Shown here: one piece after another, positions 1 to 64,000 of the stretch
Layout of the letters: every line of letters begins with the position of its first letter
Position numbering within the stretch: position 1 is the first letter of the stretch
Origin: Candidatus Phosphoribacter baldrii
GTDB lineage: Bacteria > Actinomycetota > Actinomycetes > Actinomycetales > Dermatophilaceae
Assembly (NCBI GenBank): GCA_016704565.1
Contig: JADIZV010000003.1
Location: forward strand, 91,869 to 155,868
Direction: 5' to 3'
Length of the DNA stretch: 64,000 nt
Made by a program: the position numbers and the translations under genes
Notes under the pieces: generated by a model
What the model was told of the DNA's origin: nothing
Database searches by the model: none
What the model saw: the letters and a program-made list of their open reading frames with translations, nothing else

Positions 1-1408
1 CGGCTACCTCCCTCAGGACCCCCGCACCGGTGACCTGGAGGTCCTCGCCCGCGACCGGATCCTGTCCGCTCGCGGCTTGGATGTCACTTTGCGCGAGTTG
101 CGCGCAGCCGAGACCGCGATGGCGTCGGGGGATGACGGCATACAGGAGCGCGCGATGCGGAAGTACGCGCGACTGGACGCAGAGTTCAACGCCCAAGGAG
201 GGTATGCCGCGGAGTCCGAGGCGGCGTCGATCGCCTCCTCGTTGGGGTTGCCCGAGCGCGTGCTAGGGCAACCGCTGCGGACCCTCTCCGGTGGGCAACG
301 GCGCCGAGTCGAGCTGTCGCGCATCTTGTTCTCGGGCGCGCAGACCTTGCTGCTCGACGAGCCGACTAACCACTTGGATGCCGACTCGATCACCTGGCTT
401 CGGGAATACCTCAAGGCATACAAGGGTGGGCTGGTCATCATCTCCCACGACGTGGCGATGCTCGACACCGTCGTCAACCGAGTCTTCCACCTGGATGCCA
501 ACCGGTCCGAGCTCGACGTCTACAACGTCGGGTGGAAGCCCTACCTCCTGCAGCGTGAGACCGACGAGCGGCGCCGGCGTCGGGAGCGGCTCAACGCCGA
601 GAAGAAGGCGTCGGCGCTGATGGCCCAGGCCGACAAAATGCGGGCCAAGGCGACCAAGGCGACGGCTGCGCAGAACATGGCCCGCCGGGCCGAGCGACTG
701 CTGGCCGGCGTCGAGGGGGAGCGGGCCCACGACCGGGTCGCCAAGCTGCGCTTTCCAAGCCCGGCGCCGTGCGGCAAGACACCCCTCACCGCAGAGGGGT
801 TGTCCCGGTCCTACGGGTCGCTCGAGGTCTTCACCGATGTCGACCTGGCCATCGACCGAGGCTCCCGCGTGGTTGTTCTTGGGCTCAACGGTGCCGGCAA
901 GACGACATTGCTGCGCATCTTGGCCGGGGTGGACCCGCCAGACACCGGCGAGGTCGTGCCAGGGCACGGGCTCAAGCTCGGCTATTACGCCCAGGAGCAC
1001 GAGAACCTCGACATCGAGCGCACGGTCCTGGAGAACATGAAGACCGCTTCGCCGGACCTCGGGGAGACCGAGGTGCGCAAGGTGCTCGGGTCGTTCCTGT
1101 TCACCGGCGACGACGTCGACAAGCCCGCCCGGGTGCTGTCTGGCGGAGAGAAGACCCGGCTCTCGTTGGCGATGCTCGTGGTCTCAGCGGCCAACGTGCT
1201 GCTGCTCGACGAGCCCACCAACAACCTCGACCCAGCGTCGCGTGAGGAGATCCTCGGCGCTCTGCGGACCTATCAGGGAGCGGTCGTGCTCGTCACTCAC
1301 GACGAGGGCGCGGTCGACGCCCTCGAGCCCGAACGGGTGCTCCTGCTGCCTGACGGGGTCGAAGACCTCTGGGGCGCGGACTACAAGGACCTCGTCGCGC
1401 TGGCCTGA
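1..1408 (+). CDS. ABC-F family ATPase (two ABC domains, no TM domain); 5' end outside the window
   Basis: Frame 2 is open from base 2 (GYLPQDPRTGDL...). Signature motifs LSGGQRRR and LSGGEKTR, Walker A GLNGAGKTT, Arg/Glu-rich linker between the two ABC domains. Stop at 1406-1408. Confidence 0.9.
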   Translation, partial: GYLPQDPRTGDLEVLARDRILSARGLDVTLRELRAAETAMASGDDGIQERAMRKYARLDAEFNAQGGYAAESEAASIASSLGLPERVLGQPLRTLSGGQRRRVELSRILFSGAQTLLLDEPTNHLDADSITWLREYLKAYKGGLVIISHDVAMLDTVVNRVFHLDANRSELDVYNVGWKPYLLQRETDERRRRRERLNAEKKASALMAQADKMRAKATKATAAQNMARRAERLLAGVEGERAHDRVAKLRFPSPAPCGKTPLTAEGLSRSYGSLEVFTDVDLAIDRGSRVVVLGLNGAGKTTLLRILAGVDPPDTGEVVPGHGLKLGYYAQEHENLDIERTVLENMKTASPDLGETEVRKVLGSFLFTGDDVDKPARVLSGGEKTRLSLAMLVVSAANVLLLDEPTNNLDPASREEILGALRTYQGAVVLVTHDEGAVDALEPERVLLLPDGVEDLWGADYKDLVALA

Positions 1409-1525
1409 CCGACCGAACGCTCCGAACGGGCGGCGCGACGGCATACGGAAGACCATTGCTCAGGCACCACCCGCGACGCTGAGCACGCGGCGGGCCCGTG
1501 GCGGGAAGCACGGTATGCCGTGTGC

Positions 1526-1972
1526 TCACCGAGGCGGGTCCGCGGGGCCGTCGAGGGCCGGCCATCCGGGGCAGTAGAGGCAGAACGGGTGGCCCGCCGG
1601 GTCCAGCAGGACGCGCACGTCGTGTTGCGGCTGGTCTGCCGCCACCCGCGCGCCAAGCGCGACCGCCGCCGCCACCGACGTGGAGAGATCACTCACCTCG
1701 ATGTCGAGGTGGACCTGCATCTGCTGCCGTCCGGGCACATTGGGCCAGGTGGGAGGCTGATAGCCGGCCGAGGTCTGGACGGCCAAGTAGGCGACCCCTT
1801 CATCAGGGTCGAGGGTGACAAAGCCCGGGTCCGAGGCATCCAGCCTCCACCCGAACAGGTCGGCGTAGAACTGCGCAAGAGGGAGCGCCTCGGGCGCGTC
1901 GAGCACGACGCCCCACCAGTCACGCCGGGTCTTGCGGTCCTGCCCGGGTCCTCCCGGAACTCGTCCTCGCAT
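1526..1972 (-). CDS. VOC (glyoxalase/bleomycin resistance/dioxygenase) family protein
   Basis: 148-aa ORF. FYADLFGW ... VHLDIEV ... LLDPAGHPFCL pattern typical of single-domain VOC proteins. Start codon uncertain. Confidence 0.7.
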   Translation of the reverse strand: MRGRVPGGPGQDRKTRRDWWGVVLDAPEALPLAQFYADLFGWRLDASDPGFVTLDPDEGVAYLAVQTSAGYQPPTWPNVPGRQQMQVHLDIEVSDLSTSVAAAVALGARVAADQPQHDVRVLLDPAGHPFCLYCPGWPALDGPADPPR

Positions 1973-1992
1973 ACCCCCATGGTGACGGTCGG

Positions 1993-61943: not shown

Positions 61944-63473
61944 ATGGGCGTGCGGCGGGTCATGGGGGTCGAGACGGAGTACGGCATCGCCGCGCCAGGT
62001 GACCCGAGCGCCAACCCGATGTGGCTCTCCGGACAAGTGGTCACGGCATACGCACGAGCGAAAGGTCTGCTCACGGGTCGGGGGGCGTGGGACTACGCGG
62101 ACGAGGCCCCGCTGCGGGACGCCCGCGGCTGGGAGTTGGGCCGGGCCTGGGCTGACCCAAGCCAACTGACCGACGTCGAGGACCCGACGATGGCCAACGT
62201 CGTGCTCACCAACGGAGCCCGGTTCTACGTCGACCATGCCCACCCCGAATACTCCGGCCCCGAGGTGACGACCCCGCGCGCGGTCGTTACGTGGGACCGC
62301 GCCGGCGACCTGGTCATGCAGGAGGCGGCCCGGCTGCTCAACCCCGACCCAGCTCGCCCGACGGTGGCGCTCTACAAGAACAACACCGACGGCAAGGGCG
62401 CGTCCTACGGCACGCACGAGAACTACCTCATGCGCCGGGAGACCCCGTTCCAGGACATCGTCCGAGGGCTCACGCCGTTCTTCGTCGCCCGGCAGGTCTT
62501 CGCGGGAGCCGGTCGGGTCGGCATCGGACAGGACTCGCGGACAGCCGGATTCCAGCTGACCCAACGGGCCGACTTCTTCGAGACCGAGGTGGGGCTTGAG
62601 ACCACCCTCAAACGGCCGATCATCAACACCCGCGACGAGCCACACTCGGCAGCCGACCTCTATCGGCGCCTGCACGTCATCATCGGGGACGCCAACCAGT
62701 GCGACGTCGCCAACCTCCTCAAGGTCGGCACGACCAGCCTGGTGCTGTCCCTCATCGAGGACCGGGCGCTGCCCGGGGACCTCACGGTGCTCAACCCGGT
62801 CTCAACGCTGCATGCGGTGTCCCACGACCCGACCCTGCGCACCCTCATCACTTTGCGCGACGGCCGCAAACTCACCGCGCTAGAGCTGTTGTGGATCTAC
62901 CACGATGCGTGCGCGGCATACCTGGCCGATCGGGAGGGGGATCCCACGGGGGCCGACGAGGACACTCAAGAGGTGATGACCCGGTGGGCCGACGTCCTCA
63001 CCCGCCTCGGGACCGACCCGATGAGCTGCGCCCGTGAGCTGGACTGGGTGGCCAAACTCCGTCTCCTGCAGGCCTATCGCGACCGAGACGGCCTCGCGTG
63101 GACCGAGCCGCGGCTGGCCGCCCTGGACATCCAGTGGAGCGACATCCGCCCGGCCAAGAGCGTTTTCGCCAAGTTGCGCGCCGCGGGGCAGGTCACCGAG
63201 TTGGTCACCTCCGCGGAGGCCGCCGCGGCCGTCACTACCCCTCCCGAGGACACCCGGGCCTGGTTCCGCGGCCAGTGCCTAAGCCGGTATGCCGCCCACG
63301 TCGTCTCCGCCTCGTGGGACTCGGTGATCTTCGAGGTTCCGGGTCAGACATCGCTGCAGCGCATCCCGATGCTGGAGCCGTTGCGCGGCACCCGGGAGCA
63401 AGTCCAAGACGTGTTTGACCGGAGTCCGGACGTCACCACGCTCCTGCGTGAACTCATCCGCTCCGGCGACTAG
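61944..63473 (+). CDS. dop: Pup deamidase/depupylase Dop
   Basis: RVMGVETEYG N-terminus, carboxylate-amine-ligase-like fold. Directly upstream of pup. Confidence 0.95.
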   Translation: MGVRRVMGVETEYGIAAPGDPSANPMWLSGQVVTAYARAKGLLTGRGAWDYADEAPLRDARGWELGRAWADPSQLTDVEDPTMANVVLTNGARFYVDHAHPEYSGPEVTTPRAVVTWDRAGDLVMQEAARLLNPDPARPTVALYKNNTDGKGASYGTHENYLMRRETPFQDIVRGLTPFFVARQVFAGAGRVGIGQDSRTAGFQLTQRADFFETEVGLETTLKRPIINTRDEPHSAADLYRRLHVIIGDANQCDVANLLKVGTTSLVLSLIEDRALPGDLTVLNPVSTLHAVSHDPTLRTLITLRDGRKLTALELLWIYHDACAAYLADREGDPTGADEDTQEVMTRWADVLTRLGTDPMSCARELDWVAKLRLLQAYRDRDGLAWTEPRLAALDIQWSDIRPAKSVFAKLRAAGQVTELVTSAEAAAAVTTPPEDTRAWFRGQCLSRYAAHVVSASWDSVIFEVPGQTSLQRIPMLEPLRGTREQVQDVFDRSPDVTTLLRELIRSGD

Positions 63474-63529
63474 GTTGGGCAGTGTCGGTCCGCGGGGCCG
63501 ACCCGCAGACCCGAGCAGGTGGAGGACCC

Positions 63530-63727
63530 ATGGCCAGCCAGGAGCAGAGCCGTCCGCAGCGGCGCGAGGGCGACCCGGACGCCGCGCCTCCGGACGCGCC
63601 GGTCGGTGGCGCCCAGACCCAGGTGTCGAACGCCGACATCGACAGCGTCCTGGACGAGATCGACGAGGTGCTCGAGGTCAACGCTGAGGAGTTCGTCCGC
63701 AGCTTCGTCCAGAAGGGCGGCCAGTGA
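63530..63727 (+). CDS. pup: Prokaryotic ubiquitin-like protein Pup
   Basis: 65 aa, disordered N-terminus, ...[14 protein letters not shown]-terminus. ATG 63530 follows GGTGGAGGA. Confidence 0.95.
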
Positions 63728-64000
63728 ACCGCACCACCCCGGCGGGAGACGCCCGGGCTGGGAGTCTCCCGACGGCATACCTGCGCCCGGGGAGTGCGTC
63801 GTTCACGGAGTTCGTCGCGGGCGTAGCGCCCGAGTTGCTGCCCGGGCGGCGGCCGCTGCCCGCCGGGATGTCCCTGGAGGCACCGCACGGGACGACCATC
63901 GTGGCGGCCGAGTTCGCCGGCGGGGTCATCGTCGCTGGTGACCGGCGCGCGACCATGGGCAACCTCATCGCGAACCGCGACATGGAGAAGGTGTATGCCG
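63724..64000 (+). CDS. prcB: Proteasome beta subunit PrcB, 3' end outside the window
   Basis: GTG 63724 overlaps the pup stop (GTGA). Propeptide followed by HGTTIVA (active-site Thr) and GDRRATMGN. Confidence 0.9.

Follow-up and report, generated by a model that had tools for sequence, protein, structure and literature searches.

In one group of actinobacteria from soil and wastewater, the word CGGCATAC occurs chromosome-wide at about 100 times its expected frequency, as a free-standing iterated 8-bp word. We analyzed it in a 64-kb stretch of DNA (the window, G+C content 69.5%) from an uncultured Intrasporangiaceae-like MAG lineage. The window contains 102 exact copies, 55 starts of CGGCATAC and 47 of its reverse complement GTATGCCG, and every start coordinate given in the preliminary description was exact. 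From base composition, 2.3 copies would be expected on both strands of the window, Markov models of orders 1 to 3 predicted 1.2 to 4.0, and 100 dinucleotide-preserving shuffles yielded 1.10 ± 1.18 copies with a maximum of 5. At Markov orders 4 to 6 the expectation climbed to 27 to 98, only because the sub-words of CGGCATAC are nearly missing elsewhere. The word was the commonest 8-mer in the window (∼2-fold more frequent than the next independent 8-mer) and had the highest z-score at each Markov order from 1 to 3. Relative to homologous loci of other high-GC actinobacteria, totalling 1.36 Mb, it was enriched 96-fold, and therefore the ∼50-fold excess originally estimated was conservative.

Codon usage did not account for this excess. 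Called genes contained 81 copies, whereas shuffling synonymous codons, with all proteins and codon usage held constant, left 4.0 ± 1.9, and shuffling codon order left 1.6. The word stayed the top-ranked 8-mer under codon- and dinucleotide-aware nulls, and a codon artefact was excluded as the source of the enrichment, as was an artefact of restriction-modification avoidance. Copies were found in all six reading-frame classes as well as between genes. Of the peptide positions able to encode the word synonymously, ∼71% did so, compared to 1.4% in control actinobacteria, and peptides compatible with the word were 2.4 times over-represented. These two results indicate a force acting at the level of DNA, with a log-odds of ∼5, which prevails over codon usage and alters the encoded proteins.

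The surroundings of the copies carried little information. Of 101 copies, 89 had a purine immediately before the word (position −1) and 83 had C or G immediately after it (position +1), and T was never present at −2; at each position the flanks held <0.5 bit, in line with the weak preferences first noted at −1 and +1. As had been described, the copies were distributed equally over both strands, and they lay in spacers as well as in genes of both orientations. Their spacing was near random, the word showed no strand polarity, and a polar role of the Chi/KOPS type was excluded. New copies form in place via point substitution, without indels. As the flanks are nearly devoid of information and copies arise by substitution, a dispersed REP/MITE element was rejected and the reading as an iterated word was upheld. 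The six one-mismatch examples reported earlier were all present (AGGCATAC at 414, 2448, 6389 and 31306; CGGCATAG at 45404 and 60906); as a class, one-mismatch relatives of CGGCATAC were not enriched over background.

The word was not limited to the window, as it carried on for 9.5 kb past it and was contained in 33 other loci. Knoellia, Pedococcus and related MAGs likewise showed an enrichment, and two MAGs carried a "dialect" of it, S-GCATAC-C-S. Intrasporangium, Janibacter, Nocardioides and Streptomyces lacked the word. Enrichment is unequal among related genera. None of the refuting tests set out in the preliminary description spoke against the word.

Within the literature that could be searched, we found no prior description of the word in Actinobacteria, which agrees with the initial statement that no equivalent was known there. 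It recalls the DNA "self-tags" known from Neisseria, Haemophilus and cyanobacteria. The suggested resemblance in behaviour to both HIP1 and DUS/USS held. Three mechanisms had been put forward: an uptake or recognition signal, a protein-binding word, and biased repair or gene conversion tied to a modification enzyme. All three remain live, and only the pure deamination or VSP-type form of repair was excluded, because every type of substitution contributes to new copies. The main rival explanation would be that CGGCATAC is a HIP1-like word that is linked to methylation or to chromosome structure. We tentatively favour self-recognition, with a probability of roughly 0.4: in these actinobacteria CGGCATAC would serve as a DUS/USS-like self-recognition tag, and biased DNA exchange would spread it.

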